NCBI GenBank assembly: GCA_001244265.2
Contig: CDLV01000012.1
Span: 1 to 64,000 of the forward strand
DNA: 64,000 nt
Reading direction: 5' to 3'
Origin: Microbotryum violaceum
Taxonomy: Eukaryota
Numbering within the stretch: position 1 is the first letter of the stretch; the number at the start of each line of letters is the position of its first letter. Under the pieces are notes generated by a model that did no database searches, had not been told where the DNA came from, and was given only the letters and a program-made list of their open reading frames with translations. The position numbers and the translations under genes are program-made. Of the stretch, positions 20-36,791 are shown piece after piece.

Positions 20-82
20 GCGTCGACAGGGCCAATGCGCAGGAGCGCGCGCGTCGACAGGGCCAATGCGCAGGAGCGCGCG
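20..82. repeat. Tandem duplication, 31-bp unit x2
   Basis: GCGTCGACAGGGCCAATGCGCAGGAGCGCGC at 20 and again at 51. Confidence 0.9.
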
Positions 83-115
83 CATCGCTGAAAGGAACGC
101 GAAGCCCGTGGCACA

Positions 116-736
116 CGCCGTCGACTCGCCCGCTTAGGCTCTTGCCTCGCCCTCGCCCTCGCCCTCTCGAGGGCCGCACAATGTTTTTGGTCCATCTGGA
201 CCGCTTCGGAGATCCTCTCGGCTCTGTCGGATGCTCGATCGTGCGAGGCCGCCTCCCGGCGCGATCGTAATGGGGTCGATTGAGTCGACGATACCAAGGG
301 AGAGACCGCGTCCCTCAGTTCGGCGAGGTCGTACGCGTTGGCGGTTGCGCTTGAGGCCGGGGCCGAGTTTGCAGCCGCTGAAATTGAGGTCGAGGGCGAG
401 GGCGAGGTCGTTGGGGCGTGGGCCAGTGGCGTCAGTCATACGAGTCAAAACAAGGCGCCGTCGACTCGCCCGCTCAGGCTCTTGCCTCGCCCTCGCCCTC
501 GCCCTCGCCCTCGCCCTCGATTTCAGCGGCTGCAAACTCGGCCCGACCTCAAGCGCAACCGCCAACGCGTACGACCTCGCCGAACTGAGGGACGCGGTCT
601 CTCCTTGGTATCGTCGACTCAATCGACCCCATTACGATCGCCCCGGGAGGCGGCCTCGCACGATCGAGCATCCGACAGAGCCGAGAGGATCTCCGAAGCG
701 GTCCAGATGGACCAAAAACATTGTGCGGCCCTCGAG
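116..736. repeat. Complex duplication: ~240-bp inverted repeat (166-407 / ~497-736) plus ~50-bp direct repeat (116-166 / 456-505)
   Basis: CTCGAGGGCCGCACAATGTTTTTGGTCCATCTGG... at 166 is the reverse complement of ...CCAGATGGACCAAAAACATTGTGCGGCCCTCGAG ending at 736. CGCCGTCGACTCGCCCGCT(T/C)AGGCTCTTGCCTCGCCC occurs at both 116 and 456. Confidence 0.92.
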
Positions 737-2826
737 GCCTACTTCTTCGGCCATCCGACCGCTGACGAGCTCGCTAACAAGATCTGGCCCAAGGAGTTCA
801 AGATGGGCACCGAAGAAGCGCTGGGCGAGGTCATAGCAGGTGTCATCAACACGGTGAGTCGACGCCTGGATCGCTTGACATCGAGGGTGTATGTTCCTTC
901 GAGAGCTGACTCGCCTTCTCACTGCCGTTTGTCTCACTGTTGGACCTCTAGACTGGAGACCGGCGACTGGTCGCCTGCCAGAACTCGCCCCAGTACATCA
1001 GCGTCGCACCTGACCGTGTGGAGACGACCGAGAAGACGGCCGACGTCGTGCTCTTGACCCACGCTGCGGTCGCGCACGACCCAACCCTCCCGAATGTATG
1101 GGCCCTTCCCAGTCACGCCGATCCGGCCAAGAAACTCGACGCCGATGCGGGCCCCGCCACCAACGTGAACTCCAACGCGAACGAAAACGGCAAGGGCCAG
1201 CCTCACGACGAGGACAACAACGCAGAAGAAGACAGCACGAACACGGCCAAGGTCAAGGACAAGGACAAGGTGGGCCTGAACCAGGCCAAACGCTCCTGTA
1301 CGCAAGTGGCCGCCGTCGGCGAGACCAAAGCCGGCACCTCCAACGCCGAGCGCCAGTTGTTCCGACGGTTGTCGGCACTCCTCGCAACGCCGATTCGCGA
1401 ACATGCGATCGGGTTCACCCTTCGCGGCGAACGTCTCAAGGTCTACGTGATGTCTGCTTGCGGGTGTTCTCTACCAAATCTAGAACAGTCACCGAAGAGA
1501 ATGGAGAGCTGTCGACGTTCTTGTACCGTCTCGTCCAACACAGCGATCGGCTTAACGGCATTCTAGCGACCACAACCTCGCTCGACGACCGCTACGGCCC
1601 GTTCACGCTCTGCCCCGACTTCTTCCCGCCGGCGGCCTCCGAGTTCAGCGGGGGAGCAACGACGATGTCCAACGTCAAGATCAAGGAGCTCATCTTTCGT
1701 CGACAAAGAGAGTGCGGCCGCGCAACGTCGACATACGAGGTCACACTTGCTGAAGGCGCCAACATCAGGACCTTCGCAATGACGATCATCTGGGTCGAGG
1801 AGTCGCGCAACTCGGACTTGGCCGAGATCCGCAACGTGATCCAAGAAAAGAGACCTCGCGGGCTCGCTCCACTGGTCGGCGTCTTTCGCACCGAATATAG
1901 GACCCTCCCCGTGTTCCTACCCGGCAACGAATCCCTCGCCGGTTGCACCCCACGGGCCAGGGAGGTCGTCGTTCACGAAGAACGTTATTACCCACTCGCC
2001 ACACTCGAAAACGCGAAGCAGCTCGCGCGCGCTCTCGAGGGTGCGATTGAGGGTGAGTGCACAGAGCAGAGCGGGACAGCGCGCTGAAGGGTGTGCCAAC
2101 ACTGACGACCCTTTGCCTTGCGTGACAGGGCATCGCCAGCTTTGGAATTACGGCTTCATCCACCGGGACGTGTCCTATGGCAACGTCATGGTGGACCGTA
2201 AAGGCGATGGAGTGTTGATTGATTACAATCTGGCTGTGAAGAAGGCCCGAACGGCGGAAGAAGAGTGTCGCCTCAGCCGCTCGGTACGTTCTTCTCGTGT
2301 CCTTGCTAGCCCTTCACACGTTCTTGGTCTCACCTAACTCCTTTCTATCCTTCCCCTGTACAATGATCAACCACAGGGCACGCTACCCTACATCTCTCGA
2401 TTCCTGCTCAGCCCCGCAACCGAGGGTGTGGTGCACGAGCGCTGGCATGATGTAGAATCATTCTTTTATGTGGCGTGCCGTACGGCTTTCCAACCTGAAT
2501 CTGAATCTGCCGACGCGCGACTTTTCGAGAAGCCGGACGCCGCGCGTATCTGGAACGCGTGGAATGCCAAGGATCTCAGAGATGCAGCAATCAGGAAAAA
2601 TGGGCTGCTGGTGGAGGACGGTTTTGATGAACTTCTGGACGCATGCGCACCTCGTTGGTCTGGCATGGAAAAGGTTCTGAGTGTCCTGCAGCAAAATTGC
2701 TCGCTGGATTGGTCTTTCGCAAGGCTGAAACGCATCAAGGCAGAACCAGAACTTGCGTCGCGTTGGAACTCCGGTCAGATGTCGTATGAACGCATCCAGA
2801 CGGCTTTCACAGCCCTTTGCGAGTAG
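456..2826 (+). pseudogene. Fungal-type protein kinase (FunK1 / Pkinase_fungal-like), spliced, with one frameshift; 5' end uncertain
   Basis: Motifs HRDVSYGNVM, VLIDYNLA, GTLPY and HERWHDVESFFYV. GT-AG introns at 854-951, 2053-2128 and 2284-2376 keep the frame. The frame switches at ~1462 (…MSACG / VFSTKSR…). Stop TAG ends at 2826. Confidence 0.8.
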
Positions 2827-5800
2827 AACCCGTGCTCGACATCTGCGTTCGTCTGTCGCATTTTTTATGGACAAACCTGAATGTAATACTAGACTTCGTA
2901 CTGCGCGTTATGATCAAACTCCTAGATCCTGCATGCGCAGACCAATCGACATCATCCTGCCGAACCCGATGCGATCGACGACAGGAGTGGGCGAGCTTAG
3001 GTGGGATTGCGGCGAGGCGATAACGAAAGCAAGCCTCCATTGACCAGACAGGAGCACCGAAGCTTCAGTAGTGTTTTTCGTCCTGTTTATATGGGCACTT
3101 TTCAAACACCAAATCCCAAATCCCCCGCCAGCTGCCCGCCAGCTCTGCGCGCGCTGTCCAACGCAATCCTTGCAAAGATGATCGGACGAGCACCATCTGG
3201 TATTTGAGAGGGCGGCGGCCCCCACTGCCTTCGGCCACTGAGAGCTCTCGCGATCTCTGAAATGGAAAATAATCGAATGCGGTTCATCACGACACATCAT
3301 ACATCCATCATCGGAGCGGTAATTCGCCCTGGCGGAGCAATGAACCGCCCACACAATCACGTGTTCGAGCGCTCACCCGGAGATGACGGTCAGCGATCAT
3401 GGAAGCTGGGCTCTACATGATCATGCGACAATGCGGGTTGGGGTTCACACAATGATGTGACGATTCGATTCATGTTGGGGTTCACGTGTATTACATCACA
3501 AAGCGTCTCTTCCATGTACCCATGCCCTCCTACATCATGTTCCAACACCGTCCACGGACAGCACCATCACAGTTTCATATCGATCATGTCAGCGGTTAGC
3601 GCCACGCGGTCGGAGTCGAATCGGTCGAATTGAAATGTATCGACTGGCGTATCGAGTCGCGTTCAAACACGGTGTCAGAGAGATAGGATCGTCGACGTTA
3701 TAAGTATCGTCGAGTTGAAGCTCGAGTTGACCGGACAAGTTGAAGTGGCGATTTGGGCAAGGTGGGCACATCGAGGAGGACACATGTCAGTTGGGGCTCG
3801 CTCGTCCATCGAGTATGGCCGAAGCAAGTTGCCTGGGAGATGGACGGGTCCAGCTGATCATCGATCGTCCGAGTGCCGAACGGTCCGAGTCGAGACGACG
3901 CTGCTCGATGAAGTGGCTCGAGTGCCGAGCCAGCCGAAAACAGCGCAGAAGAGTCAAGCTGATCGCAAGGAAATGACGGACTTCGGGTCGGGAGAAGCCG
4001 TATTGGTGTGAGCGATGATTGGGCAGATCGGTGGGAAGCTGACGATGGGTGACCTGCAAGTTGGATCTTGCGCACCAGGGATGTCGGGCAATGCTGTGGA
4101 ACACAGATGACATCTCGAATGAAGTAAGGCCAGGATTGACGGGACTTGAGCGCATAGAGACCCAGGTTGAAGATGACAGCCTACCGAACTGGGGACCTGG
4201 CTGATTGAGCTGATGATGTGGATGCGAAGATCACGGGGGAGTGCCGAGCTGAGTGCGCCGACACAGATCAAGGCGAGGTGAGGTGAAGCGTGTCGATAGG
4301 AGAACTTGGCAGATGGGTCGAGAATGAGTCGATAGTGGGGTTGGCATTCATGGTGAATAGGTCGGATGGTGACAGTGAGTCCAAGGCAACCGAGCACGAG
4401 TGCGGAGGAAGGTTGGCGGTCGAGGCGGTCGAGGCGGCCATTGCGAGGGTCGAGCGGATGGTCACTTTGCGCGTCGTGGTGATGGGAGGGGTACGGATAG
4501 GGAGAGATCGAGCTGTAGAGGTTTGTCGGTTCGGTCGGTCGACCGATGGATCGGACCAAAGGTCGATGGTGCGGATGGGCGTCGATTGAATGTTCGCCGA
4601 GTCGAGCAACAGTTTCCGACAGACTCCGAGTTTTCCGCGTCGATGAGAGTCGTCGATGAGACCCGTCGGTTTGATCAAGAGAGATGCGAGCGGTCGCTCG
4701 ACGACGCGAGTGAACGATGTGGGGGAGGCGGAGGTGATCCTCGGAGTGAAGCGACAAAGATCGAGTGAGGTGTGCATCGATGCCAGACCACAGGAAAGTT
4801 GCGCATCTTTTTGGCGGTGCTGATGTGGGTTGCGCACTGTGATCGCAGAGTAGGGTCGAACAAGTCACAGAGCGGTTCGGTGCGAAGCTCGGATGCCAGC
4901 GAGTCGGCCAACGCGCGATCTGAACTAGAGTGATAAGTAGCAAAGACAGACATGAGGTGAGCGAAGAAGGTGAGAGCTTGGTACGATCTGAATGAAGAGC
5001 TCACCACATTCATCGGTCGAGCAGCGAGAGGGCGACCGGGGTGAACGAGGCGATGCGCTGACCGGGCACGTGTACGACCGAGAACGCTCGAGCGAAGCAT
5101 CGACGTGTGCTTGGACGCTGCTGAAAGTGACCACGCCCTCTCAGGGTGCAGTTTCAGTTGTACGGTGTTGATGATGGCAATGTTGGACATGTCATTAACC
5201 GTGTTGTGCGACGTCGCACCGTGCGCGCATCAGAGTCGGGTCGAGGTGACACGTCGAGCTGCAGTTGGGAGAGATCGAGTTGCATCTCGCAGATTGCATG
5301 GCGCATGTGAACGATGTGAAAGCATGTGACGTGGACATCCGAGGTAGTCATCGCAGTCAGAGACGTAACCGGTCGAGGCGTCTGAAGGCGAACGCGAGCA
5401 CAAGTAGAGGTCCGGGCGCGGGTCAGGATCCGAGTTCGGTTCCGGGCCAAGTAAATGTCACCGTCATCGTCATTGTTCGTGATGGCTAGGCCGTCTATGT
5501 TTTCCCCCACGACGACATCAAGGCTGGGAACGTGGGCCTGGAACATGGACCTGAAACGTGGGCCAACTTCACAGACCCTCACCACGTCGCTTTCGAGCCA
5601 TTCTTGGGTGCTGAACATGTTGTTTGTGTACTCAAGTATATGGTTCTCTTGGTGATGACCAAATGTGCGTGGTGAGCTTGTGAGATGCGATTGAAGACAC
5701 GATTCCTCGTGGTTTTGACGGGGTATCCCGTCAAAACTTTGGCTGGTGAGCTTGGACCCATTACCGAAACACATTGTCAATTAGTGGAATGTAAGGTCTA

Positions 5801-6424
5801 AGCCAGTGAAAGAGCTAATGTAATGTAATTACCCGCTCGCGCTCCAAAAACCATGCGCCGTGGTCTCGCGCGTCTTTCCCACACTCACGCCAGTGGTCGC
5901 GCGACCGCGGCGTTGTTGGCGGCAACCTCACTCATTGTCCGTCCCGCAGACCGCCGTGTCCGCACCCGCGACCGACAAGTGGACGGACATGGGGTTGCGG
6001 TACGCACATGACAATTTCGAAGCTCAAGAGTACTAAAATACCCATGCTATCATGTCCTCCTTGCAGATTCAAAGTGGGTCTACTCATACAATTGTTCAAC
6101 TTGTGTACCTAAAATCAAGTGGACGGACATGTCCGTACCTTTGTTCTGGGCCGAGGACAAGAAGCAGTGGACCGCGCGGGCGCTCCAAAGTCGTCAAGGC
6201 CACAACGACTAGTGTAATTGAGTATACTGAAAAAACAACGCAGAATAGCACAAATCACGCGTATACAAGCCAGCTGTGATCGTGACAGAGTTGCGATAAA
6301 CTTATCAACGTCTACAAGTCCTCAAGTCTGCCGTGTCTCAGCTCTAGCGCCACGCCGAAGCCCGAAATGGGTTTCCCATTTCGGATCCGATCCCGGTTCA
6401 GCGCTCTGGGCTCAGGCTTACTCG

Positions 6425-6715
6425 GTGCACAAAGTTTCACGCTGCACTGCCATCTCGCAATGCCCGAGGAATTCCCTGTGCACCTCGATTTGACGGTTTT
6501 CGCCTTGTTGGGGCCTTCAGAGTCGAAAAAGTGGATTTCAGCAGTGCACGAGGAATTCCCTGTGCACCTCGATTTGACGGTTTTCGACCTGTTCCGCCCT
6601 TCAGAGTCGAAAAAGTGGATTTCAGCAGTGCACGGGGAATTTCCCGTGCACCTCGATTTGACGGTTTTGCCAAATAAGTGGATTTCATCAGTGCACGAGC
6701 AATTGACCGTGCACT
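6425..6715. repeat. Minisatellite (units 84, 84, 63 bp) carrying palindromic GTGCAC-N12-GTGCAC motifs
   Basis: Units start at 6466, 6550, 6634 and 6697. Junction motifs are GTGCACGAGGAATTCCCTGTGCAC, GTGCACGGGGAATTTCCCGTGCAC and GTGCACGAGCAATTGACCGTGCAC. Confidence 0.9.
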
Positions 6716-6802
6716 ATCAACTTCATTTTCACTGGAAATTTGGGGTTCTGTTCCAAAACGTATCCCGGAATTGGGCTCTACCCCACCTATGATACCGATA
6801 TA

Positions 6803-7532
6803 CTGTTGCTGAGTGAACTGCACTCGGCCGAGGTGACGGATCCGACAGACACGGCTACAACCCAGCCGATCCTCGCCATCGCCACGGCGCTCATGATGTC
6901 ATCGTTCGAAGGCTTTAAGATAGACGACCCTGACGTGGCAACCCTGACCAATGTTCGACGTAAGGCCGCCACTGCGCTGGCGCCCGGTGGTACGGGCCTA
7001 CCTCGTCCGAGTCCCCCGTGAGAATGCGATCGATGGACTCGGCAGTTCCGTCTCCGTCTCCATCACTCGAATTGGATTTCCCGAATATGCCTCCTGCGAC
7101 CACGCCGTATTCGCCCCAACGTTTGTCTCTGGCGCCTTGGATGTCTGGGAACTCCCACTGCAGAGGGTATCGACACCGTAGAAGTGCCATTGTTTCATCG
7201 TGCACAAGCGTTGGGGTGAATACGGCGTGCTGGTAGCAAGCCTATCCGGAGAAACCCAATTCGAGACGGAGACGGAGACGGAGACAGAAATGCCGAGTCC
7301 ATCGATCGCATTCTCACGGGGGACTCGGACGAGGTAGGCCCGTACCACCGAGCGCCAGCGCAGTGGCGGCTTTACGTCGAACATTGGTCAGGGTTGCCAC
7401 GTCAGGGTCGTCTATCTTAAAGCCTTCGAACGATGACATCATGAGCGCCGTGGCGATGGCGAGGATCGGCTGGGTTGTAGCCGTGTCTGTCGGATCTGTC
7501 ACCTCGGCCGAGTGCAGTTCACTCAGCAACAG
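6803..7532. repeat. Long inverted repeat, arms ~325 bp (6803-7126 / 7204-7532), loop ~77 bp
   Basis: CTGTTGCTGAGTGAACTGCACTCGGCCGAGG... pairs with ...CCTCGGCCGAGTGCAGTTCACTCAGCAACAG. The ORF track gives the same peptide (LLLSELHSAEVTDPTD...LPRPSPP) on both strands. Confidence 0.95.
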
Positions 7533-8175
7533 ATACTTGTAGCCCCTATAATTGACTGTGAAGCCAGCGGATGCGATCGCCCTCAGCAGCAGCTCGTCCT
7601 CAAAGCTATTGGCTTCCAACGTCTGACATACCCAACTCGGCTATCACGAAGTATGGTCCTGCCCAAAAAATACCGAATCGCTTGCCTTTCGTGCTATCGA
7701 TCGAAAGCGCCATCTGTATATGGAAAGAAAGCTGGGCTACTGGGTTAGTCGTCTTTGCTTCGAGCACGATCGTCGCCACCACCTCCTTCTCCTGTTCGCT
7801 CGCTCCTGCCCTCGGCCCCGTCCACACCTCAAAGACGCCATCGCCTTGTTGGCCCAACCTTTGTTCGAGCCCCCTGAGAGTTACCCCAATGTATGGCCCC
7901 ACACCCCCCACACCGCGTGTGAGATGCCTGACGATTTCGATGGCCACTTGTGTAACGAGCTCCTGGCAGACGGAGCTGGCAAGAGTCTCGTTGTCCAGCA
8001 TAGCCTGTTCCTTAAAGGCTTTCAACATCTCCGCTGAAACTTCGGGGGGGAGGGCCGCATCGTAATCGAGACCTTGATGAGCCACACCTCGGTCGAATCC
8101 GCCGAGGGCGAGAGGGAGTCGGGTCAGGAGTCGACCGTTGACGCTCGGATGTCCGGGTCGGGGTGAAATGGCCAA
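7314..8175 (-). pseudogene. Uncharacterised protein with a PD-(D/E)xK-like motif; apparent frameshift near 7615
   Basis: The 189-aa ORF (QGDGVFEV...TIVLEAKT...QLSFHIQMAL...RFGIFWAGPYF) continues in another frame as a 101-aa ORF. Both look globular. The fold call rests on motif pattern only. Confidence 0.45.
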
Positions 8176-8636
8176 TGGCGACGATTGGCCCGCTCCCTCC
8201 GAGGGTTGCTATGATGGTGAGGAGTCACGTGACGGCACAGTCGGCCCCATCCGGAGCGCTTCCGCTGGGACCCTCTTCACCTCCAGCCGTCGTCCACTTG
8301 GGGCCTCATCACCTCCAGCGTCTCTGTATGACTTCTTCCAACGATGCGACGCCAGGTGTTTCGACCAACTCTCGACCACCAACGCTCACCCAACTCCTCG
8401 CTACTTGTGCTCCATCCAGCTGGTTTGTCACGCCGCCGGACCACGATGGAGCGTGTCACTCAACTACTACGCGCGGTCAAGCCGATGCTGGGACGACCAC
8501 CTACGAATGCGTCGCACGGCTGGGAGGACTGAAATGGGACTCACCCGCCTCACCTGGCGTCAGGGTTCTCAGCTCTTTCTTCGATATGCTCGAGCAACAC
8601 CCCTCATTGCTGGACCTGTTCCGCGAGGAGCTGGGG

Positions 8637-8651
8637 TAACCCTAACCCTAA
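8637..8651 (-). repeat. Interstitial telomere-like repeat, (TTAGGG)2TTA on the minus strand
   Basis: TAACCCTAACCCTAA lies 2 bp after the end of the left inverted-repeat arm. Confidence 0.7.
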
Positions 8652-9382
8652 AGCAGCACTGGGTCCTCGTGATCGAGTATGGGAATATGCGAGAGGGCGC
8701 CCTCCTGGCGTACCTTGGCCAAGCTATAATGTACGTTGTCCCGCTGGTATGCAATCGAGATACTTGAAACGACGTCGCCAGCCTCAAGTTCAATGCAGAC
8801 AACAGCATCGCCCTGCGTGCGAAGAGCACGTTCAGGTTCACCCAGTTGAACCGAATAGCGGGGTCTCGTGGCGGAGGTCGAGGCGGAAGCGGAAGAAGCT
8901 CCGACGGCCTCGGTGATCGCGGCATAATGGTTGAGCAGCGCTGCCGTTGCAGATCGTAGACCGCTAGCGAAGAGGCAAACGAACGAGATTTCGACGGCGT
9001 GCTCGCTCTTCCGACTCAACCTGCTGTAAGGAGCATTGCTGATGGCGTCCAGCTCGCGGAACAGGTCCAGCAATGAGGGTTGTTGCTCGAGCATATCGAA
9101 GAAAGAGCTGAGAACCCTGACGCCAGGTGACGCGGGTGAGTCCCATTTCAGTCCTCCCAGCCGTGCGACGCATTCGTAGGTGGTCGTCCCAGCATCGGCT
9201 TGACCGCGCGTAGTAGTTGAGTGACACGCTCCATCGTGGTCCGGCGGCGTGACAAACCAGCTGGATGGAGCACAAGTAGCGAGGAGTTGGGTGAGCGTTG
9301 GTGGTCGAGAGTTGGTCGAAACACCTGGCGTCGCATCGTTGGAAGAAGTCATACAGAGACGCTGGAGGTGATGAGGCCCCAA
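8648..9382 (-). CDS. Hypothetical protein (244-aa ORF), possibly truncated
   Basis: Long ORF with globular-looking composition. Its TAG stop lies inside the telomere-like repeat. Confidence 0.4.
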   Translation of the reverse strand: MGPHHLQRLCMTSSNDATPGVSTNSRPPTLTQLLATCAPSSWFVTPPDHDGACHSTTTRGQADAGTTTYECVARLGGLKWDSPASPGVRVLSSFFDMLEQQPSLLDLFRELDAISNAPYSRLSRKSEHAVEISFVCLFASGLRSATAALLNHYAAITEAVGASSASASTSATRPRYSVQLGEPERALRTQGDAVVCIELEAGDVVSSISIAYQRDNVHYSLAKVRQEGALSHIPILDHEDPVLL

Positions 9383-10067
9383 GTGGACTGCAGCAGGTGA
9401 CGAAGACCCCGGCGGGCGCAGCGCGTAGCGAGTGCAGCCTGCCAGCGGCAGGCGACTGGCAGGCGAGTGCCGCGCGACTGCCGCGCGCTACCTCGCGCTA
9501 CCTCGCGCTACCAGAAGTGGGCGCTCGGTCGCTGAGTCGAGCGTCTCGTGTCGGCCAAGTAATACGACGAGCAGTCTCCGACTGAACGACATTCATGCCG
9601 GTCTCTGTTGATGGATATGAATAATGATTATATGATAAATTGTTGGTTTGGGCTTGGGGGCGAATGTCACCACGGGTCCACGACACGGCCCCGCGAAGAA
9701 ACGGCGGGGCAGCGCAAGGCGTCGCAAGCAAGGGGAGGCAAACCGGGGAGGCGGGTGGGAAAGTAAAAAAAATCTGAAGTTTCGAGCGAGCAATAGGCGA
9801 TGTTGCGAGCGAGAATATTTGGTTCTAGCAAGAGGGACTGATTCACACCGCACTCGCCTTTCGACTCGCTCGGCGCTCCCGTTGGTCGCCTTTGGCCTCC
9901 TTTGGCAACCGGCCTCGCAAGGCCGCAGGGCCTCGCCAGGCCTCGCTTTGGCACTGCTTTGGCCTTGTTCGCGCTCGCTCGCCTCCGCCAACGCGCGTTC
10001 TCGTGTTCTTGTCTTTCCCGCCCAAACCCCTTTGCCTTCCGCCCGTCACCGCGTCACCTTTCGCAGG

Positions 10068-10122: not shown

Positions 10123-10516
10123 GCCTTTCTGCTCACTGCACGATGTCCGATTCCCGCGAAGGAGAACACGACTCGCTCCCGCGCGCGTCGCTTGTTCTCT
10201 TGCCAACGCAAACGCCACGCCTTGTGCGCGGCCCCTCCACCCGAGGACGATCCGGCTGAGCGTTCGTGCACTCCAACCAATCCCTACGTCGCCCTTGTTA
10301 ATTCGGAACGTCTCCAAGGCGTTACGGCCACAGGTCGCCTTGGGGTAACGCGTTGGAGACCTTCCGCATCAACAGTGGCGACGTAAGGACCCGTTGAGTG
10401 CACAAAGTCGCTCAAACCGGCACGCGGCCTTCCCAACCGCATCCGTAAGGCGCTCACCACCACTTTTGACCCCTATCGGGTCACGCATCACAGGCCCGGT
10501 CGAGCTTGCGAAACTT

Positions 10517-10859
10517 CGTGTCTTTCCTCTGAACACTCGCGACGCATCTAACAAAAATGACCACATGCAATGCGCTAGGCAGTGGCGTTGTTGACTTCGT
10601 TTGCGATGTTCTGGCCACATGTTATTCAGCGTCCACAGCCTAACGATCTTGGACCCCTCGTCGCTTTCGTGGGGCTGTACACGCACAATGATGTGTGGCC
10701 AGAACATCGAGATGCGAGCTTTGAGGTTTTAGGGACCACTTCGGGTCGTTGCCCCTAGGCACGACCCGCGAACGAAGTCGACAGCGCCACTGACTTGCGC
10801 TTTGCATGTGATCGCTGGCTTTGTCAGATGCGTCCCGGGTGTTCAGAGGACAGACACGA
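10517..10859. repeat. Nested imperfect inverted repeats forming a branched fold-back
   Basis: Outer stem 10517-10604 / 10769-10859. Inner hairpins at ~10604-10710 (CGATGTTCTGGCCACA / TGTGGCCAGAACATCG) and ~10742-10768 (CGGGTCGTTGCC / GGCACGACCCG). Confidence 0.85.
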
Positions 10860-12150: not shown

Positions 12151-12950
12151 CAATCAATTGTTACCACTCAGTGGAGAAAGAAAACGAAAGAAACATCTAA
12201 TAAATTCAGAGTGCACTCACAGAGGGGGTACCAATAATCGCTTAATCCTCGAGTTCTGGTGTCTTGTGTTTCTCCAACACTTCTGGGAACTGCCCGTTCA
12301 CAAAAAAAAAAGGTGGGGTGGAGCTCAGTCGCTCTACTTTGGCCGACTTGCCTCGCCAAAAGCACTCACAAGCTTGTGTTGTAATGCAATTCGGACCGCA
12401 CACGAAACATGTTCTTCTGATCCCACCACAATGCGTACCTGCCCCTTGACCTCGCTGAGATCGAAATAGTTCGACTTTGACAGGTCTGAAACCGCGTCTC
12501 CCGAAGCTCCTGAGCGAGGTGTACTGTCGGCCGAGCCGCCAATCGCAGCGAGCAAATCGGAAGCGCATCCAGTGGATCCAGGGGGAGTCATGAGACCGCT
12601 TTTTGGTTCTTGTTCATCCATTTTTCGTTCCTGACCCCATGAGAATAGAGTACGGATTTGTATAAGAGTGCGAGGCATAAGTCGGACGTGTGGGCCCACG
12701 AAAGCTGAAACGCAACGATCGCGCAACGCAAGACCGACGCCAACGCTACGAGTGCCGATGGCTCGGTGCGACTGATACATCGAGCGAACTTGAAAACGTG
12801 CTGACGGCACCAACATCGAGCGTAGACCAACAAGACTCATCACGCCAAGTGTTGGAATCATGATGCCCAACGGTGTGGTCAAAAGGGGACAGAGTGCGAA
12901 GCTTGCAAACTGCCCGTTGAGTTCGGTGCTGCGAAGCGGCGCAACCTGAA

Positions 12951-13100
12951 TAGCAAAAAAACACCCCTGAAATGAAATGATCCCGGGATCGGGCCCCCAA
13001 TTTCAAATGCATTTGGGATCGCTACGCCGATACCAAATCGCTGCACCGATTTCAAATTGGGGGCCCGATCCCGGGATCATGCCATTTCAGGTTTTTGCTA
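12951..13100. mobile_element. MITE-like element, ~150 bp with ~50-bp terminal inverted repeats
   Basis: TAGCAAAAA...CCTGAAATG..ATGATCCCGGGATCGGGCCCCCAATTT pairs with AAATTGGGGGCCCGATCCCGGGATCAT..CATTTCAGG.TTTTTGCTA. TA is present at both ends and there is no ORF. Confidence 0.6.
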
Positions 13101-14038
13101 TCTGGCGCGCCTGCAAGCGTCGCGCGGCTTTTGGTAGCGAATAAGTTGCGCGATGACATGCTGCAGCATCCGCTCACTCCGAGATGAGAGGGCGACCCAA
13201 ACCCTTGTGCAGGAGCTACAAGTGAACACGTTCCAGTAAGCAATAGTAGATTGACATCTTGTCTCAAAGCACGAAGGGCAGAGAACTGGCTGGCATGCGA
13301 TCGCAAAACCGAGCCCAGCTCACCCCCACCCCCACATTCCCTACCTCCATCCACCCGAGCCCTCGTGCGACCGGAAGGAACGTCCGGCAAATGAATTGAC
13401 AACAACAAAAGAGAGAATTTTTCTTGCGGATTTATCACAACTTGGAAACCCCGCCTTCCGCCCGCTCTTTGTCCAAAGGGTCCTCAAGGCTCCTCTCAAT
13501 CGATCGTGCTTGCCGGGCTCCTCCTCGCCGCTGACGCGTCCACGGTCGAAGAGGCGATCGAGGCTCGGCGGTTCTAAATTTCCTCAATTGATCAAGTCTA
13601 TTGTTCAGTGGTGGCTCGCAATGTTTGATGGGTGTGTGTGCCTCGGTAGCAGGTGAAACTAATTATGATGGAGAAGCTCCTTGTCCTTCCATGTAGGCAC
13701 GATTTACGATGCTTTGAAAAAAGGTCGAAACAGCCAACGATGAGATTCTTCGCGGCTAAGGCCCTTCAGCTTTGACGGGAATGGACAGGGAAGAGAAGTG
13801 TGCAAAAGAGCGAATTTCGTTTGTTTTACACAGTGGTACGTAAATGGGTACGGGCAGATCTCATGGTCCATGATGAAGAACAAGTAAAGAAGAGAGAGCG
13901 GAAGATGAGGCGAAGGGGAATTAATTCGTGACCGGGGCGCGTATGTAGTGAGCGAAGGCGTGAAAAGCCTTCACCCACAAGCATTAAACATTTTCTGAAG
14001 AATACAAAGCGACCCCACCCAAAAAGCAAACACCAGGC

Positions 14039-28368: not shown

Positions 28369-29784
28369 ACTCGGCTCGCAGTACACGTAATAGGCCAACT
28401 GCCTACCGCCGCACCGCACACGATCTCAGCCTCGTCCACAGGAATCGAGTCGCAATGCTGCACCGCTGCCAGCCCATGATTGAAGCGCGCGGGATGCGAT
28501 CAATATCGAGACGAATTTGGCGTAGACGTGGACCTCGAGCAGGCAGGCAGGCACAGGCAGGCGGCCCACGAGGCGCTCAAGCAACTCAGCCTTCATTCAC
28601 TCACCCAGTAGTTCACAGCACCCCGCGCACGACCACACACACACACACAAGCACACACCCGAGATCTTTCGGATGAGATCAAAGTCGATCCAATCCACCA
28701 CACACCAGACCAGACACGGAGACGAGACGAAACGAAGGGCGAGACGGGGGCGATCGCACACACTGCCAATGAGAGAGGCTGAGCGTCGTGCACGTCTCGC
28801 GTGTCAAGCTCCCAAGTCGGCCGGCCTGTTAGCGGCCTGTTTGTAACTGACTAATAGTTGTGACACACTGTTGCGACTCTGCGCTACTCTTGCGCCCCTC
28901 AGTCTCACTTCTCGCGCGCGCGCCCTCTCTCAATCAGCGCCCGTAGCGGGAGAATGAAATTCAAGGATATTCGAACATGTCTACAGGATTTCAGCGCAGA
29001 GGTTAACAAAACATCATACAAAGTACAGCAAAGAAACAAAAATCCATTCATTCTCAACAGTGTGCTGGTACATTCACCACTGGCGGGCCTCCGGGCCGCA
29101 GCATAGCTAAAAACACCGATTTTAGGTACATTTCTTAACTCAGCATCATTTCTGGTAGAATCAAACCAACTGCTCCGAGGTATGGTGGTGTTCGATCGAA
29201 CAAGACCGATCGAATGAATCCCTCTTCAAGATGCTATATCAAGATCGCATCTTTGGACATGCCACCGGCGCCGTCGCCGGACCTGCACGAGTCGACCTGT
29301 ACAAGAAGCTTGCGGCCTCCAATGAAACTGTCAGAGGACAAAAAAAACCTGCTGGTGAGCGGCTCATCAAGACTGTTCCCGAAGTTGTCCCACTGCACTG
29401 CTTCCACTGACCCTCATGTGTGATCGGTACTAGGACCCTTCACAAATTCGGTCTTCGTCAAAATCGACAGAAGTCGCATTACGAAATCCATTTGCAGCTT
29501 GTCTGCATCATGGCCCAACTCGAATGATCGAACCTTCAAATTCACACACGAGTCCGGACGGGTCATCAGGTGACTTGTACGACGTGACGTCCAGACTGTC
29601 GTCCTATGACGGAGGGAGAAGGGTGGTCAGCGTTTTTTTTTTTTTTTTGATAGACTTCATTAACAGCATAATTATATTAATACCTAGAAATCTTCGGAAA
29701 AGTCGGAGGGAATGCTGTTACGCACACTGGCAGAAGCCAGTAGTGTAGGACTCATTGACCCTGAACCAGGATCAACCATACCCA

Positions 29785-32714
29785 CTAAAACCCCCTTTGG
29801 TGTCTTACAGAGACTAGGCGACCCTTGGACTCCTGGATAGAGGCTCGAAGCCCCTCGAACTCCGTTTCGGTGATCGGTTCCAAAAGATCCGACGAGAATC
29901 GACGACGGCGACAGAGCTTCCAGATCGAGTGAAAGAAGAGGACTCGTAGTTCGACAAGTCGACGTTCCGAGCGAGACACGACCGGGCATACAAAGTCCAC
30001 AAAGACTGGGTGGGGGGTCGGGGACAGAGCAGACCAGAGGCGCCGGGCAAATGGGCAGCCGACCGCGAGGTGAGCCAGGCACTCGGGTGCTTCCGAGAGG
30101 CACATCACACAGAAGGTAGATCGATTGTTGGGATGTGGGCTGGTTGGGGAGGCGACTTGGCTTCCCGGATGGAGGGACCCCAGGGAGAGAAGGTGGCCGG
30201 TATCCTCGGCGTCCGAGTGAACCCGACGAACCTTGCGCAAAGCCTTCCACCAAGCGTTCCAGCGTTGCTCAGGCAGATCGAATACCTTCTGGTGTCCCTT
30301 GGGGAAGATAGGGGGAAAGATGAAGACTTGGTGGCGTTTGGACGCGTTCACAAACGAAGACGGGGTCATCACCTCGCCATCGGGCCCTCGAAAAAGCGTC
30401 GGGTTTACCGAGAGTTGTATTCCGTGGCCCGCTGGGAAATAGAGTACGTGCGTCGCCCATTGCTCGAGGTTCTGGCTCTTGGAGAGTTCCGGGGGATTGA
30501 GCGTGGTCACCAACGCCCAGGCTTCGAAGTATCGGACCCAACGAGCAGGAAGAAGTTTTGTCGTTTTTCTCACCGCATGGTCCCACTTTGGGGGAGGATG
30601 GCAAAAGTAAGCCCACCAGATCCAAATCCAAGGGCAACGATGCTGGTTGGGGGCCGGTCTGGACAAGGTGAAAGGGGTTGGTTCGTTTGGTGCCTGGAGG
30701 CGGATGCGGATGTCGAAGAGGTGGCGTGTGAAGCAGCCGTCCGGGGCCCGGAGCTGGAAGACCCACTTCGCGTGATCGATTGCTAGACGCCGAGGCAGAT
30801 CAATCAAACCGAAGCCGCCGTGATCAAGAGGGGTGCAGAGGCGCGACCGGGAGACCTTCGGACGTCGCTGAGTACCATCCGAAGCTCGACCGTGAATGGC
30901 GAGCATGGCGGCCTCCTCGATCTCCTTGACAACGCTCTTGGGGGCGGGAAGGAATCGGCTGTAGTACAAGATCTTTGTGTAGCAGTAGATGTTGATGATC
31001 GAACACTTGGCTGTATATGGGAGATCGTACATCGGAACTGAGCGTATCCGAGCGATGGTCGAGGCCTTGACATCTTCCCAGCCCGCATCCTCGGCGATCT
31101 CCACCCCGACCTGAATACCAAGGTAGCGAAACTGCGAATCGCTGAGACGCCAGGTCCCGAGATCTGGGGCGATCGACCGATCCCGAAAAGCTCCAAGAGG
31201 GTAGAGGAAAGATTTGACGTTGCTGAGCTTGCTGGCACTTGCCCGTTCGTAAAGCTCAATCGCCCGATTGAGGTGGTCGAGGTCCGAGAGGTTGTGGAGT
31301 GCGCAGCAAGCGTCGTCGGCAAAAAGGAGTTCGCGAGCGTTTTGGAGGCCCGCAATATCGATGCCCTTGACTCTCAATCGAATCTGACAGGCAAAACCTT
31401 CGATCGCCAGGACAAAGAGAGACGGAGCCAAAGGATCACCTTGCCGAACGCCCGACAGGATGTCGAAAGTGGCAGAGAGCCAACCGTTGAGGAAGATCGA
31501 GGCAGATTGGTTGGTGTAGGTCGCTCGGTACCATTGGCGGGCTTTGGGGCCGAGGCCAACTGCGCAGAGAAACGCCTCTTGAGCCTTTGTCATCTCCTCC
31601 AAAGGGTACGCTTCCTCGAGCTTGAGTGAGTCCGCGGGGGAGAGGCGAGTTGAAGCGAGGCCGTCGATGATCGCCTTCAGGGCCGCGTCATCGATGGGGC
31701 GGTCCTCATAGACCCGCCACGACGGAACCGAGCGAACGTCCGGGCCAGAGCCTGCAGCTCGGGCAGCAGGCGGTGTTTGGTGGACGTCCAAGCTGCTGGT
31801 GGATCGTTGGGCGTCTGGAGGAGGGCTTTGTTGTAAAGGGTGCGGACAATGGAGGTGAGGTACTCGCAGGTCGCGTCGCCCTCAATCACGTGCAAACCCA
31901 GCTTGAATTTGCCCGGACCGATGTCGATTGCGCCCGGCACTTGGAACCGTGCCACAACCATTGAGTGCGTCGATTTGAGGACAGGAGCCCAAATTTTGTG
32001 ATCATGGAAGAGGTCGACCCAATCAAGGGAGACATAGATGCGGTCAAGGCGACGGCACGTGCCGGGCGCTGAGCGATTCGTCGTGGCTCGTCCTTTGGGA
32101 TGATGGAGCCGATAGGCGTCGAAAAGATTGTTGGCCGTGGCAAGGTCGCGCATCTCCTGACCCCCATAATTCGTTCCGTTTTGGTTCTCCGAATCGAGGG
32201 GCTGGGACTCAACACAATTCCAGTCCCCCCCGACTAGGAGCGCAGGCGGCGAGGGTTCGTCACGTACAACTTGTCGGAGGGCGGTGCTGAGGTGTGAGAA
32301 GAAGCGTTTTTTGTCTGGCTTGTCGGAGGAAGGCGCGTATATTGATACAACCCGGACTTTTGAACCACCCACACAAAAGGTGGCGTCGGTGACTCGGTCC
32401 GGGAAAGAGAAAGAGGCACGAAGAGTGTTTGGAGGCGACTCGGGATCAAAAGTAATGACCACGGAGTCGCTCTTCCAAAGTATGGCAGTGTTGTTGAAAG
32501 GAGTGAAAAGAGCGGAGAGCTTTAAGTCTTGGCACTCCTGAGTCCACTGGGCCACCCTTTCGGGGGAAGGTCGGCCAGTTTCGCTCAGGAGAAAGACGTC
32601 GGCGTTATGGGAGCGAAGATTGGAGAAAAGAGAGGCACGCTTACGGTCTTCATTGATTGACTGCACGTTGGCAGCAACAAAAGACACGTTTGGGATTTTG
32701 GTTGTGCTCATCAT
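29785..32714 (-). pseudogene. LINE ORF2 (AP endonuclease + truncated reverse transcriptase + zinc finger), disrupted
   Basis: APE motifs NVQS, LSET, SIYAP, GGDWN and RRLDRIY. RT motifs GVRQGDPLAPSLF, LFADD and FRYLG. C-terminal CVMC...HLAVGC. The frame breaks near 31710 and the N-terminal RT motifs are absent. Confidence 0.88.
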
Positions 32715-34134
32715 CTTGGTCCATAGCGTCTTCCACGTCCTTAGGAGGTGCTTCTTGGTCTTCGGCTTCTTCGTCGGCCTCGTCGTCGGTGTCGGCGTCA
32801 TCGGGTCGGGCTTTGGGCGCGGCTGAGGGCAACGGCGTGGGCGAAGACAGCTCAGGGATCGGCTCGGAGGCTTCGAGGGCAGGCGCAGTGGGAGGGGCTT
32901 CACGAGTGGCTGGCTTGGAGAGGGCGGCAATTGACTTGGATCGAGTTATGATCGACTTTGGCGTGGCCGGAGGAGGGCTTGGGGATGGAGAGGTGGTCTC
33001 TGAGCTGGGGGGCTCGGAGGATTTTTCAACGAGGGAGTAGGCAATTCCCTGATTGGAGGCAGGCTGGGGGGCAGGAGGAGTGGCAGTTTTGCAAGGGAAA
33101 TTGAAGGAGAACTCAGGGCGGGCATTCTTCGACAGAGAATCGGGCTGAGCTCTGTTGGACAGATCTTCAGTCTGGGCAGCCAGATCCTGTTCCACTCGAC
33201 GTTTTTTGGTCGTGCGGTCGTGGGCGGAGGCCGGGGAGATCGACTTGGACACGGCGGCGGGGGCGGCGGTGGTAACGGTGGAGGCTTGCGGGGCACGTGA
33301 CGTGGGGGGTCCCTGGGGGCTCGACGCATGACGGGCCGGGCAGTGCTGGGTGGCGTGCGAGGTGCTCGCGCAGGACTTGCACGCCGGGGCGACGGGGCAA
33401 TCCTTACGGACGTGAGCCGCGGAACGGCAGAAGACGCAGTGGCGCATGCCACCGGTGATCCTCAGTGGGATTCGCTCAGTGACACCGTCACGAGCAATAG
33501 AAAGTGAGGCAGGGGGCAAAACATCTACATCCTTAAGGGCAAGGATAAAGTCGTACACCCCAGAGATGTGTTTCGTCTTTCCAATGTATTGGATGCGACG
33601 ACGGAGGACCGTGCCATAGGCAGCGATCTGCTCATCGAATAGGCAGAGGCCCTCGGGGTCGGAGAAAAAGCCCGTAAGGGTGCATTGTACAACACCTCCT
33701 CTAGTAGAGCTGTACAGCTTCTCGAGTTTGCACAGAGTCTTGCCAACAGTGAGGCCGTTGGCCACCAGGGTGTCGAGATCGGCGGCCTTGGGAAAGCGGA
33801 GGCTGCGCTGACCCTTGATGACGCATGGCATTGCGCCGGTAAGGCCAGGGTAGCATTTGTGAAGCGCGAGGAGGACTTGCTCGACCGAGGTTGAGGGTGG
33901 GGTGTTGATGATGACACAATTCTCGATGTTGTGGATCAGTGGATGGGCGGCGACGGCAGTCGAGGCGTTGGCGGTGGCGTTTCCGTGCTTCGTAGCGGAG
34001 CGGGCGCCGACCGCGGCGGAGTATGATTTGGTGGTGGTGGCGGGGGCTTGGCCGGGAGGATCGGGAGGGTCAGGGCGAAGAGGTGGTATAGCAGCATGGC
34101 TGGCGTTGTTGGTGTTGTTGTTGTTGTTGTCCAT
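32650..34134 (-). CDS. LINE ORF1 (gag-like nucleic-acid-binding protein)
   Basis: CVFCRSAAHVRKDC and CKSCASTSHATQHC (CX2CX4HX4C), with a Pro/Ser-rich then acidic tail. The ORF is open, but the ATG at 34134 is uncertain by one codon. Confidence 0.88.
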   Translation of the reverse strand: MDNNNNNTNNASHAAIPPLRPDPPDPPGQAPATTTKSYSAAVGARSATKHGNATANASTAVAAHPLIHNIENCVIINTPPSTSVEQVLLALHKCYPGLTGAMPCVIKGQRSLRFPKAADLDTLVANGLTVGKTLCKLEKLYSSTRGGVVQCTLTGFFSDPEGLCLFDEQIAAYGTVLRRRIQYIGKTKHISGVYDFILALKDVDVLPPASLSIARDGVTERIPLRITGGMRHCVFCRSAAHVRKDCPVAPACKSCASTSHATQHCPARHASSPQGPPTSRAPQASTVTTAAPAAVSKSISPASAHDRTTKKRRVEQDLAAQTEDLSNRAQPDSLSKNARPEFSFNFPCKTATPPAPQPASNQGIAYSLVEKSSEPPSSETTSPSPSPPPATPKSIITRSKSIAALSKPATREAPPTAPALEASEPIPELSSPTPLPSAAPKARPDDADTDDEADEEAEDQEAPPKDVEDAMDQDDEHNQNPKRVFCCCQRAVNQ

Positions 34135-34774
34135 CCAACAAGAGTTTCCTTTTTCAAGTCGGCGACGACGCTTCGAGGAGAATAGTGGCCTGTAACCGTT
34201 AGAACCCTTATTGAAAAAAATTAAGTCACCCCGAAGAGGGGGAGAGGGAAAGGAGAAAGATTTGGACTAAGAGCGTTGGCGTGCATCAACATAAAGCAGA
34301 TCATTCCATAACGCGCATTCAGTATGCTTACAATAAGTCTAAAACCGCTTTGACACTCGTGGTTGAATTTGAACGTTCGATCGTTCCAGTTGGGCCATGA
34401 TGCAGACAAGCTGCAAAAGGATATCGTAATGCGACTTTTGTCGATTTTGACGAAGACCGAATTTGTGAAGGGCCCTAGTACCGATCACACATGAAGGTCA
34501 GTGGAAGCAGTGGGACAAGTTCGGGAATAGTCCTGATGAGCCGCGAGACAGCAGTTTTTTGTTTTGTCCTCTGAGAGTTTCATCAGTTGAAAGCCGCAAG
34601 CTTCTTGTACAGGTCCGACTGCGCCGGTGGCATGTTCAAAGATGCGATCTTGATATAATATCTTGAAGAGGGATCCGTTCGATCGGTCTTGTTCGATCGA
34701 AACGCCACCATACCTCGGAGTAGCTGGTTTGATTCTACCAGGGACTGGCTCCGACTCAACTCAACCATGACTCT

Positions 34775-34866
34775 TTTCGAGCAAAGTTCTTTCAGTTCTG
34801 TGGCACAACTCGTCGTTGCTTTCAACGACGAGTTGTGCCACAGAACTGAAAGAACTTTGCTCGAAA
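34775..34866. repeat. Perfect 44-bp-arm hairpin with a 4-nt loop
   Basis: TTTCGAGCAAAGTTCTTTCAGTTCTGTGGCACAACTCGTCGTTG-CTTT-CAACGACGAGTTGTGCCACAGAACTGAAAGAACTTTGCTCGAAA. Confidence 0.97.
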
Positions 34867-35358
34867 GGAGGTCGAAAAGCGCTTGAGCGTACGTCAAGCC
34901 CTGGCCATGACGTCTTTGAAGATCCCAGCCAGATCAGGGTCGACCCATTCCATCAAGTCGTCGAATGCGAACGATTCACGGCTTCAACGTGGTACCTCGT
35001 CATACGCGCCGTCGAGAAGCATCCTGTTGATGGGCAAGAACGAGCGGCGAGTCAGCCCGGGAAGATCAGTAAGAAATATCAGGGAGGATGCGGTGTAGGA
35101 CTTACAAGACCATATGCGGAGCGGCCCGAAAGCCAAAAGGCGAAAGACGTCCGCAAAAAAAGTTGCCGACGTCATGGGCCGCCCATTTTTCCTCGGGCAA
35201 CTGGTTGTTGAACACATAGTAGAAATTGTTGCTTGGCACCGCCGCGTGCGAACGGGAGGCGACGGCGCTTCAACTTCATCACGATGTTGCGACGTGCAAG
35301 ATGCCGCAGTCGAAGTTTGCGTTCGATCAGCCACTGGATGTAGCAGTCGAGGTGATTT

Positions 35359-35403: not shown

Positions 35404-35796
35404 GACTTTGTGAACATTAAATAAGGTCGATGTGTCAGTATGGAATAGGCTGGCACCCCTTGAGTGAGGCTGCATCGTCACAGCTGACGCACCGGTATCA
35501 TCTTTCAGTTTCGCAAAGGAGTAACCGTCGCTCAAATCTAGGTCGGGATTGACAAGGTCTGAGAATAAATGATGATGGTCAGATCTTCAAGACGAACAAC
35601 CGCAACAAGTGATTTCTTAGGTCTTACCCAAACCCATCACACCGTGAAGTTTGGTCCCGGGCGTTCCAAACACGATACCGCTTAGCGCAGACAGAGTCGG
35701 GTGGAGCGCATCCGAGTGAGGGAAAGAAAGGCAATCTTCGAAGTCGCCGAGTCACCGAGCACCTTGTTAAAAGCACAAGAATGGCATCTTGCCTCG

Positions 35797-35961
35797 GTAG
35801 AGTATATCATACTTTGTGCTTGTGCAGACAAAGTGGTCAAATCGCTGAGAGCTTATGGCCAGGTTGAAACCGGCACGTTCGAGGTGTGCGCCAGTCCTGT
35901 CCTGGACTCTCAGCGATTTGACCACTTTGTCTGCGCAAGCAAAAAGTCTGATATACTCTAC
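35797..35961. repeat. Inverted repeat, ~55-bp arms and ~55-bp loop (MITE- or hairpin-like)
   Basis: GTAGAGTATATCA...GCAGACAAAGTGGTCAAATCGCTGAGAG pairs with CTCTCAGCGATTTGACCACTTTGTCTGC...TGATATACTCTAC. Confidence 0.92.
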
Positions 35962-36260
35962 AGACTGGCGCATTCGTGAGGGTTGGACGATGGGTGGAGC
36001 CATGAGATTGCCGACGTACTCCGAATGCGAGTAACGCAACAATCAATTTGGTAACGACCACCATAAACTCCTCCTCGGTGCGTCAGTGCTTGGGTAAATC
36101 GTTCGGCGCCTCCGGTCCGCACTGATATTGCGTCTCGATCTCGCTCCACTGCAGCCTTCAAGTTGCGAGTGGAAGACGGCGAGAGCATTGTGGTGCTAGA
36201 CGTTGTCGGACTGAGGTGATACGGTCACGGAAGATCAGTTAACAGCTTCTTCGAGCTGGC

Positions 36261-36791
36261 CTCGGCGATCAAGCGGCTCCAGCTCCGTTCACCGCGACAA
36301 CGACCGCACTACCTCGCAACTCGGCGGCTTGAAAGCCCATCGTTTTCAAGCCTGTCAGGCGCTGAGAGTCCCCGAACAAGCCAAGCTTCTTCTGGACGAA
36401 AAAGTCAACACGTGATTCCGATCGTTGGGCGACCCAAGAGTTATCAATGGACTTGCCTTATAGAGGAGCACAGGTGTAATCTTGCAGTACTCGGCACCCC
36501 TCGGGTTAGCGCTATGGTCGATTCAAGCCCCAATGCCCAGCCCAAGCCCCAACCCGGAGTGAGGGGTGCAGAGTACTTCAAGATTACACCTGTGCTCCTC
36601 TATAATTAATCCTCTCGGGTCGCCCAACGATCGGAATCACGTGTTGACTTTTTCGTCCAGAAGAAGCTTGGCTTGTTCGGGGACTCTCAGCGCCTGACAG
36701 GCTTGACTACAATGGGCTTTCAAGCCGCCGGATTGCGAGGTAGTGCGGTCGTTGTCGCGGTGAACGGAGTCGGAGCCGCTTGATCGCCGAG
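36261..36791. repeat. Long inverted repeat, ~240-bp arms with an internal asymmetric bulge and ~45-bp loop
   Basis: CTCGGCGATCAAGCGGCTCC... pairs with ...GGAGCCGCTTGATCGCCGAG. The inner stem TTATAGAGGAGCACAGGTGTAATCTTG pairs with CAAGATTACACCTGTGCTCCTCTATAA. Confidence 0.95.

Follow-up and report, generated by a model that had tools for sequence, protein, structure and literature searches.

The window analysed here comprises the first 64,000 bases of contig C10, which is 1.61 Mb long and belongs to a Microbotryum violaceum assembly (G000; 33.2 Mb in 20 contigs). Sequence comparison across the contigs showed that the region is a chromosome tip assembled from blocks common to other tips, and both the contig and the window start inside the first gene. 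Three coding genes (genes 1 to 3) lie close to this end, and each is accompanied by an inverted copy of part of itself; the three pairs are referred to as hairpins 1 to 3. A preliminary description had reported three near-identical inverted duplicates, and all three were located by sequence comparison. The features of the locus are the following.

37-166, plus strand: 5' coding part of gene 1, first copy (FunK1 family); 116-166 is directly repeated at 456-506
166-456, minus strand: inverted insert of hairpin 1; 166-410 is a copy of exon-1 positions 494-736, and 411-456 a copy of the start-codon region
456-2826, plus strand: body of gene 1, FunK1/Pkinase_fungal; introns 854-951, 2053-2128 and 2284-2376
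6399-6805, no strand: telomere-associated element with 84-bp repeats at 6457-6714; an internalised former chromosome end
6803-7126, plus strand: inverted arm of hairpin 2, duplicating the final exon of gene 2 and its 3' flank; abuts the telomere-associated element
7204-7532, minus strand: gene-side arm of hairpin 2, comprising the final exon of gene 2 and its 3' flank
7314-8250, minus strand: gene 2, encoding a PD-(D/E)xK-like protein (QGDGVF..LEAK); intact, single copy at the nucleotide level
8262-8634, plus strand: inverted arm of hairpin 3, duplicating gene 3 in its 5' part; contains a 103-codon open reading frame (ORF) at 8328-8636
8637-8651, no strand: telomere seed of 2.5 repeats, TTAGGG sense toward the chromosome end; precisely where the cut gene 3 meets the inverted arm
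8648-9352, minus strand: gene 3, cut short; belongs to a family of nuclease-like plus kinase genes with about 10 subtelomeric paralogues, 81-91% identical
9053-9415, minus strand: gene-side arm of hairpin 3, covering about 100 codons from the start of gene 3 plus the 5' flank

The arms of the three inverted repeats measured 245-366 bp and were 95-98% identical, and each duplicated its neighbouring coding gene. In hairpin 1 positions 166-410 paired with 494-736 (97.6% paired) across a spacer of about 83 nt, and the longest perfect stem was 94 bp. Hairpin 2 (6803-7126 versus 7204-7532; spacer 77 nt) was 94.8% identical overall and 98% over its outer 262 bp, with a longest perfect stem of 125 bp. 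Hairpin 3 (8262-8627 versus 9053-9415; spacer 425 nt) was 97.2% identical and contained a perfect stem of 257 bp. The blastn E-values of the arm pairs (0 to 1e-171) were far outside chance, and the predicted RNA folding energies were -578, -688 and -942 kcal/mol for hairpins 1, 2 and 3. The ORF at 8328-8636 was identical to a 103-aa protein on record.

The preliminary description had named assembly chimeras as a possible source of such inversions. The inversions are not chimeric, as their junctions recur on other contigs, in gene models and in short-read contigs. Hairpin 1 was found with identical junctions on contig C8 and in a fuller form on C3. Consecutive gene models of M. silenes-dioicae match gene 3 (C010g06216, in its first 183 residues), gene 2 (C010g06218) and an ORF in which the telomere-associated repeat runs into arm 2 (06219), including an arm-specific residue. 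The loop of hairpin 2 was crossed by a short-read contig of run X2 (7015-7320) with 0 mismatches, and the outer junction of arm 3 by contigs from runs X1, X2 and X6. The contigs of the runs are unstranded mosaics; run X6, possibly from another strain or species, was taken as complementary DNA solely from its at least five canonical splice joints. For 6750-9450 no RNA data set was listed, and run X8 had almost no coverage of that stretch. The arms diverge by 2-5%, transversions included. A database model (MVLG_05092, P0011) joins gene 3 and gene 2 over arm 3; such a joint did not occur among the contigs listed.

The host genes

Exon 3 of gene 1 matched Pkinase_fungal (PF17667) with 32.3 bits (cut-off 24.1), and a full-length homologue (P0027) reached 119 bits. 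A predicted FunK1 model matched kinases over residues 374-722 (Z 13.6, root-mean-square deviation 4.0, 244 aligned). With this Pfam match and a kinase fold carrying HRD (near 2160) and DxN/DFG-like motifs, gene 1 is a member of the FunK1 family. PD-(D/E)xK nucleases have the motif layout E (helix)..D..(D/E)xK. The N-terminal part of gene 1 contains a D..ExK motif (codons ~1039-1330, ADVVLL..VGETK); in 9 homologues E141 and D185 were invariant, with ExK in 8 and QxK in one, and the domain carries the conserved E..D..(D/E)xK motif. Residues 152-283 of the model had a predicted local distance difference test score (pLDDT) below 50, and the kinase domain alone occupied both fold-match lists, leaving no place in them for a restriction-endonuclease match. 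At the site that we take to be that of the ATP-binding lysine in kinases, threonine or serine was found (AMT/AMS..W; about 1775-1790 in the window, and all nine FunK1 homologues), and these proteins may therefore be atypical kinases or pseudokinases.

Every host gene had been thought to be damaged by a frameshift or truncation; only gene 3 is truly cut. The three 1-nt deletions in gene 1 (541, 602 and 1461) lie in C or G homopolymer runs and were private among 8 aligned copies. Five of the seven other FunK1 copies had 1-nt exonic homopolymer deletions of their own, and the copies on C6 and C18 had none. Of four runs, three cover 1461, and all three are without the deletion there. Judging from these alignments, the frameshifts of gene 1 are probably long-read consensus errors. 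The inversion cuts the window copy off from the upstream start codons, and an in-frame ATG at 707 precedes the folded domains.

The supposed frameshift of gene 2 is an intron (7556-7631, 76 nt, GTATGT..ACAG), which was spliced out in run X6. The spliced frame agreed with a 272-aa protein of M. silenes-dioicae (P0001) in 270 of 272 residues and had one terminal stop. For a predicted first intron (8197-8238, 42 nt) no splicing was seen, and an alternative start lies near 8028. Genes 1 (as a family) and 2 yielded spliced contigs in run X6. The Atlas model of gene 2 (pLDDT 0.49) gave template-modelling (TM) scores of 0.60-0.67 to PDDEXK_12, HSDR_N and Crinkler clusters, all under the bar for naming, and a feature score of 0.92 to an HSDR_N cluster. 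A separate AlphaFold model (pLDDT 37, unusable) gave no fold match. Several distant Microbotryum relatives of gene 2 bear a C-terminal kinase-like domain.

The window copy of gene 3 ends at the telomere repeat, which provides its premature stop, and the kinase half is gone. The paralogues contain QGD..IEYK, followed by downstream frames with a kinase motif; in the C4 paralogue, whose spliced protein is predicted only, these frames matched APH with 26.3 bits (cut-off 23.2). The ExK position reads EYK in 7 of 9 paralogues, EYQ in 2 and AYQ in the window copy. The preliminary description had assigned D..(E)xK patterns to two loci; both motifs were found, and that of the gene-3 family had been overlooked. 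Atlas structure neighbours of this family belonged to HSDR_N, NotI and PDDEXK_7 clusters, with TM by query of just 0.32-0.43. A cluster with SPOK2_N in 76% of its members was a feature lead (0.91, 182 of 256 features, no alignment). Comparison of the gene-2 and gene-3 family profiles gave a 31-column match (E 0.0009, probability 23%), a lead only; neither profile matched FunK1, and the Pfam scan gave no match for gene 2 or gene 3. An alternative identity of gene 3 as a telomeric Penelope-like retroelement was rejected, since the paralogues carry nuclease-like and kinase motifs.

The earlier view that the hosts belong to multicopy nuclease-like or nuclease-kinase families was supported. Named homologues of all three proteins came from Microbotryum (anther-smut fungi) only. 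In their working the hosts would resemble conflict genes of the restriction endonuclease (REase) type, with or without a kinase, and membership in the Spok family is a lead. The header of Crinkler (CRN) proteins (LxLFLAK/HVLV) and a hydrophobic leader were absent in four of four proteins, and no Crinkler Pfam match was present in 10 database proteins.

Two observations concern the surroundings and relatives of gene 3. A dispersed repeat of about 380 bp lies beside it (9518-9896) and has at least 20 near-full-length copies genome-wide. On C7 (1984.7-1992.5 kb) an old head-to-head pair of the gene-3 family, 72-73% identical, has a short telomere repeat near its symmetry centre.

Junctions and recurrence of the inverted copies

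The telomere 15-mer between gene 3 and arm 3 is the sole such repeat in the window (8e-5 expected by chance), and its orientation fits a left chromosome arm. A contig of run X2 showed telomere repeats joined to the telomere-associated element on its outer side, at the site equivalent to 6399. The sharp inner end of this element, where the arm of hairpin 2 begins, was seen at six other places, with five different sequences attached to it. On C3 the FunK1 copy has a complete inverted triplication of exon 1 with CTCGA microhomology, and the form on C10 and C8 is a deleted derivative of it. The marks of fold-back repair, namely an arm copied from adjacent DNA, a short spacer, microhomology and telomere addition or end capture, were all found. 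DNA repair therefore suffices as an origin of the inversions, a route that was absent from the preliminary description. The telomere-associated element also occurs on C3, C6, C8, C14 and C17 and could be a non-autonomous telomere-capping mobile element.

FunK1 loci were gathered by DNA and Pfam searches, which give lower bounds, and 70 rows were merged by hand to 55 loci. An inverted self-copy within 3 kb was present at 16 of the 55 (12 partial copies, 4 whole-gene pairs); one 60-bp case was not counted. A spliced neighbour gene (3600-5500) has 14 copies of at least 640 bp in the same duplicated blocks, none with an adjacent inverted piece. In 6 places members of the gene-3 family carry another, independent hairpin at the kinase end. 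A census covered 500.7 kb of fetched neighbourhood, a sample picked around these genes, 25.8% of which was nuclease/kinase coding DNA. The raw listing contained 15 repeat families in nuclease/kinase genes and 6 outside recognised nuclease/kinase coding sequence. Inverted repeats were present in 3 of 20 interior 10-kb stretches and consisted of nested copia elements, a presumably Helitron-like fragment and two 115-bp arms separated by 2 kb. In the window itself, a gene at 36.3-38.0 kb (no Pfam match) and its single paralogue elsewhere have one hairpin each, at different places (36261-36791 and C3:2282.0-2283.7 kb).

Several further arrangements were noted. At C13:891.6-895.1 kb, C17:679.3-683.9 kb and C18:217.9-220.6 kb a gene of the FunK1 or gene-3 family has an inverted copy of its own 3' end upstream, an arrangement that recalls the terminal inverted repeats of a transposon (identity 97-98% at two of the loci). 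Diverged FunK1 tail-to-tail pairs about 1 kb apart occur on C4, C8, C5 and C20 without an inverted repeat at the nucleotide level. A young palindrome with 603-bp arms (96%) lies immediately upstream of a FunK1 fragment at C13:740967-742172. In the window, positions 29152-34741 are occupied by a 5.6-kb element with terminal inverted repeats of about 400 bp (86%), probably a DNA transposon. Smaller palindromes lie at 10257-10414, 10516-10859, 12950-13101, 34771-34870, 35794-35964 and 43467-43589; the palindrome at 12950 is found again on C8, C9 and C12.

Probable origin by repair and a possible role in silencing

The inverted copies would be DNA-level fold-back or template-switch scars from the breaking and healing of a chromosome tip. 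In the case of hairpin 3, telomerase may have acted briefly on a break in gene 3 before about 370 bp were copied by fold-back and synthesis switched to DNA upstream of gene 2. Hairpin 2 could have arisen from a break just beyond gene 2, a fold-back of about 325 bp and capping by the telomere-associated element. For hairpin 1 a microhomology-guided inverted triplication of exon 1 would have been trimmed later, and subtelomeric recombination would have carried it to three chromosome ends. Such scars would persist because their hosts, multicopy genes of the nuclease(-kinase) conflict type, are redundant and dispensable. As to the silencing machinery, the Dicer and Argonaute called for by the preliminary description have counterparts in a twin-RNase III frame and two Piwi loci. 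Since the genes are transcribed and RNA interference (RNAi) appears intact, read-through of some scars probably gives double-stranded RNA and small interfering RNAs (siRNAs) of about 21 nt, and siRNAs from hairpins 1 and 3 could hit paralogues. On balance we lean slightly towards this reading, in which the hairpins are repair scars tolerated in dispensable genes and some of them probably leak siRNAs.

Some of the data weigh against this reading. The proportion of FunK1 loci with an inverted self-copy (16/55) exceeded that of the neighbour gene (0/14; Fisher p = 0.016, with copies of either gene non-independent), and with partial copies only (12/55) p was 0.05. In the census 11 of 17 independent families, merged by hand, overlapped nuclease/kinase coding DNA (p = 8e-4). 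Without the three window events the number was 8 of 14 (p = 0.013), which still exceeds the expectation for a blind process. The enrichment of inverted self-copies in these families is real and comprises about 11 independent events. Moreover, hairpins 2 and 3 are common to the sister species, and several hairpin alleles are present on 3-6 chromosome ends. Many events lie away from the tips (for example at C1:903 kb, C2:2.78 Mb, C17:484 and 541 kb), and the telomere route therefore explains only some of them.

A different explanation is that the scars were kept and spread as selected hairpin-RNA suppressors of toxic, Spok-like nuclease-kinase genes. Relatives would then be acted on in trans by copies that are themselves disabled (hairpin 3, together with the types found on C12/C8/C9 and on C1/C2), and control in cis would apply to intact genes bearing their hairpin at the 3' end (gene 2, and the gene-3 family with its kinase-end hairpin). 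The enrichment and recurrence in these families agree with this explanation, as does the second, independent kinase-end hairpin of the gene-3 family. In window gene 3 both the kinase half and the ExK motif are gone, which would fit a disabled copy, and the RNAi genes noted above would supply the machinery. Paralogous targets had been expected for all arms; intact ones exist for hairpins 1 and 3, and hairpin 2 matches itself only. Each of five hairpin-free close paralogues was matched perfectly by 150-171 of the 225 21-mers of arm 1, and each of nine paralogues by 10-51 of the 346 21-mers of arm 3 (68-157 with one mismatch). A contig of run X6 (7871-8422) extends from gene 2 over 160 nt of arm 3; being unstranded, it is not proof of one transcript. 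In stripe rust a 21-nt small RNA cuts a FunK1 transcript (10.1101/2022.06.16.496483), and the resemblance of the gene-3 family to the SPOK2_N-rich cluster is a further lead.

Other observations speak against selected suppressors. Over 12 hairpins an excess of G:U pairs was absent on the sense strand (152 versus 166 A:C, p = 0.47), and older hairpins have decayed to 76-85% identity (76-98% for all), as predicted by neutral decay. Hairpin 2 has no nucleotide paralogue in the assembly at which it could be directed, and fold-backs also occur in unrelated DNA. The spliced FunK1 contigs of run X6 imply that the family is not fully silent there, and a transcript with both arms was not found among the unstranded contigs listed. 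The alleles of run X6 had also been compared with individual paralogues (5 of 5 sites agreed with the C3 copy, 0 of 5 with the window copy); this match was set aside in view of strain, species and mosaics. We consider a selected suppressor role unlikely, though it is the strongest of the alternatives to tolerated repair scars.

Fold-backs might also pile up in these genes through self-inflicted breaks, caused by the encoded PD-(D/E)xK nucleases, much as with a transposase-like enzyme that works in cis, or by high transcription, with no RNA role. Equal enrichment without selection on pairing is what this would predict. The three loci with a terminal-repeat-like inverted 3' end upstream (C13:891 kb, C17:679 kb and C18:218 kb) could be read in the same way. 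A point against it is that eukaryotic proteins are seldom confined to action in cis. REase domains of this sort have been linked to mobile elements (PMC5289972). We regard breakage of this kind as improbable. Chimeras from long reads that folded back on themselves during assembly, as the homopolymer errors in these repeats and the start of the window at a contig end might suggest, are largely refuted by the recurring junctions and are hardly credible.

Comparison with known systems

FunK1 kinases and fungal REase-kinase genes form large, fast-changing families whose function is not settled. If siRNA control arises from hairpins of the families' own members, this would explain the FunK1 siRNA target in rusts and would identify the families as selfish or toxic and not as signalling kinases. 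The locus also documents, letter by letter, a way in which a hairpin gene can arise via telomere-seeded fold-back repair. If the hairpins are inert, the locus is a tidy natural record of subtelomeric repair.

In yeast, inverted duplication is initiated by a hairpin and followed by capture of a chromosome end (PMC3974649). The Microbotryum hairpins resemble these fold-backs in their short spacers, in the copying of adjacent DNA and in telomere addition or end capture. They differ in that the arms span just 0.25-0.4 kb and have become fixed in a natural genome; two of the hairpins also occur in a sister species, and they are concentrated in few families.

In stripe rust (Puccinia striiformis) 21-nt siRNAs arise from gene-overlapping inverted repeats (PMC4578785; 10.1101/2022.06.16.496483). 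The siRNAs were sequenced there, whereas in Microbotryum they are predicted from the genes, RNAi genes having also been given for this genus (PMC4469406). The excerpted P. striiformis text does not name FunK1 or nuclease genes as the source of the repeats; the Microbotryum hosts are nuclease(-kinase) genes with telomere-healing junctions. In Phytophthora, CRN genes are major sources of 21-nt RNAs, which are probably dependent on RNA-dependent RNA polymerase rather than hairpin-born (PMC3804510). With the CR (Crinkler-RHS-type) effectors the hosts share an REase plus kinase module and a multicopy state (review, PMC5289972). Hairpin siRNA loci derived from genes are known as such. The literature searched, which did not extend to subscription papers and bioRxiv supplements, gave no report of such loci being concentrated in Spok-like nuclease-kinase families and having telomere-healing junctions, and no published link of hairpins to these families in Microbotryum.

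Podospora Spok proteins combine a PD-(D/E)xK nuclease domain and a kinase in one protein, and loss of the catalytic lysine abolishes killing (PMC6660238). A nuclease-like domain and a kinase are likewise joined in FunK1 homologues, and this is predicted for the C4 paralogue of gene 3. The degenerate motif of window gene 3 parallels the lysine loss. Homology of the Microbotryum genes to Spok is at the level of a feature lead, and drive by these genes is putative.

The Drosophila Nmy and Tmy hairpins act against the Dox family (PMC10292708). In both systems young hairpins are homologous to a multicopy, possibly selfish family and are born recurrently, and a long inverted repeat homologous to a separate target family is present in hairpins 1 and 3. 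In Drosophila siRNAs, derepression and phenotypes are proven and the targets are protamine-derived, whereas the Microbotryum hosts are nuclease-like and the case is made from genes. We hold it doubtful that Microbotryum has repeatedly tamed expanding Spok-like conflict families with hairpin RNAs born from fold-back repair of chromosome ends and spread subtelomerically. If true, such taming would be a fungal counterpart of the Drosophila arms race between Dox genes and hairpin RNAs, with its birth mechanism visible.

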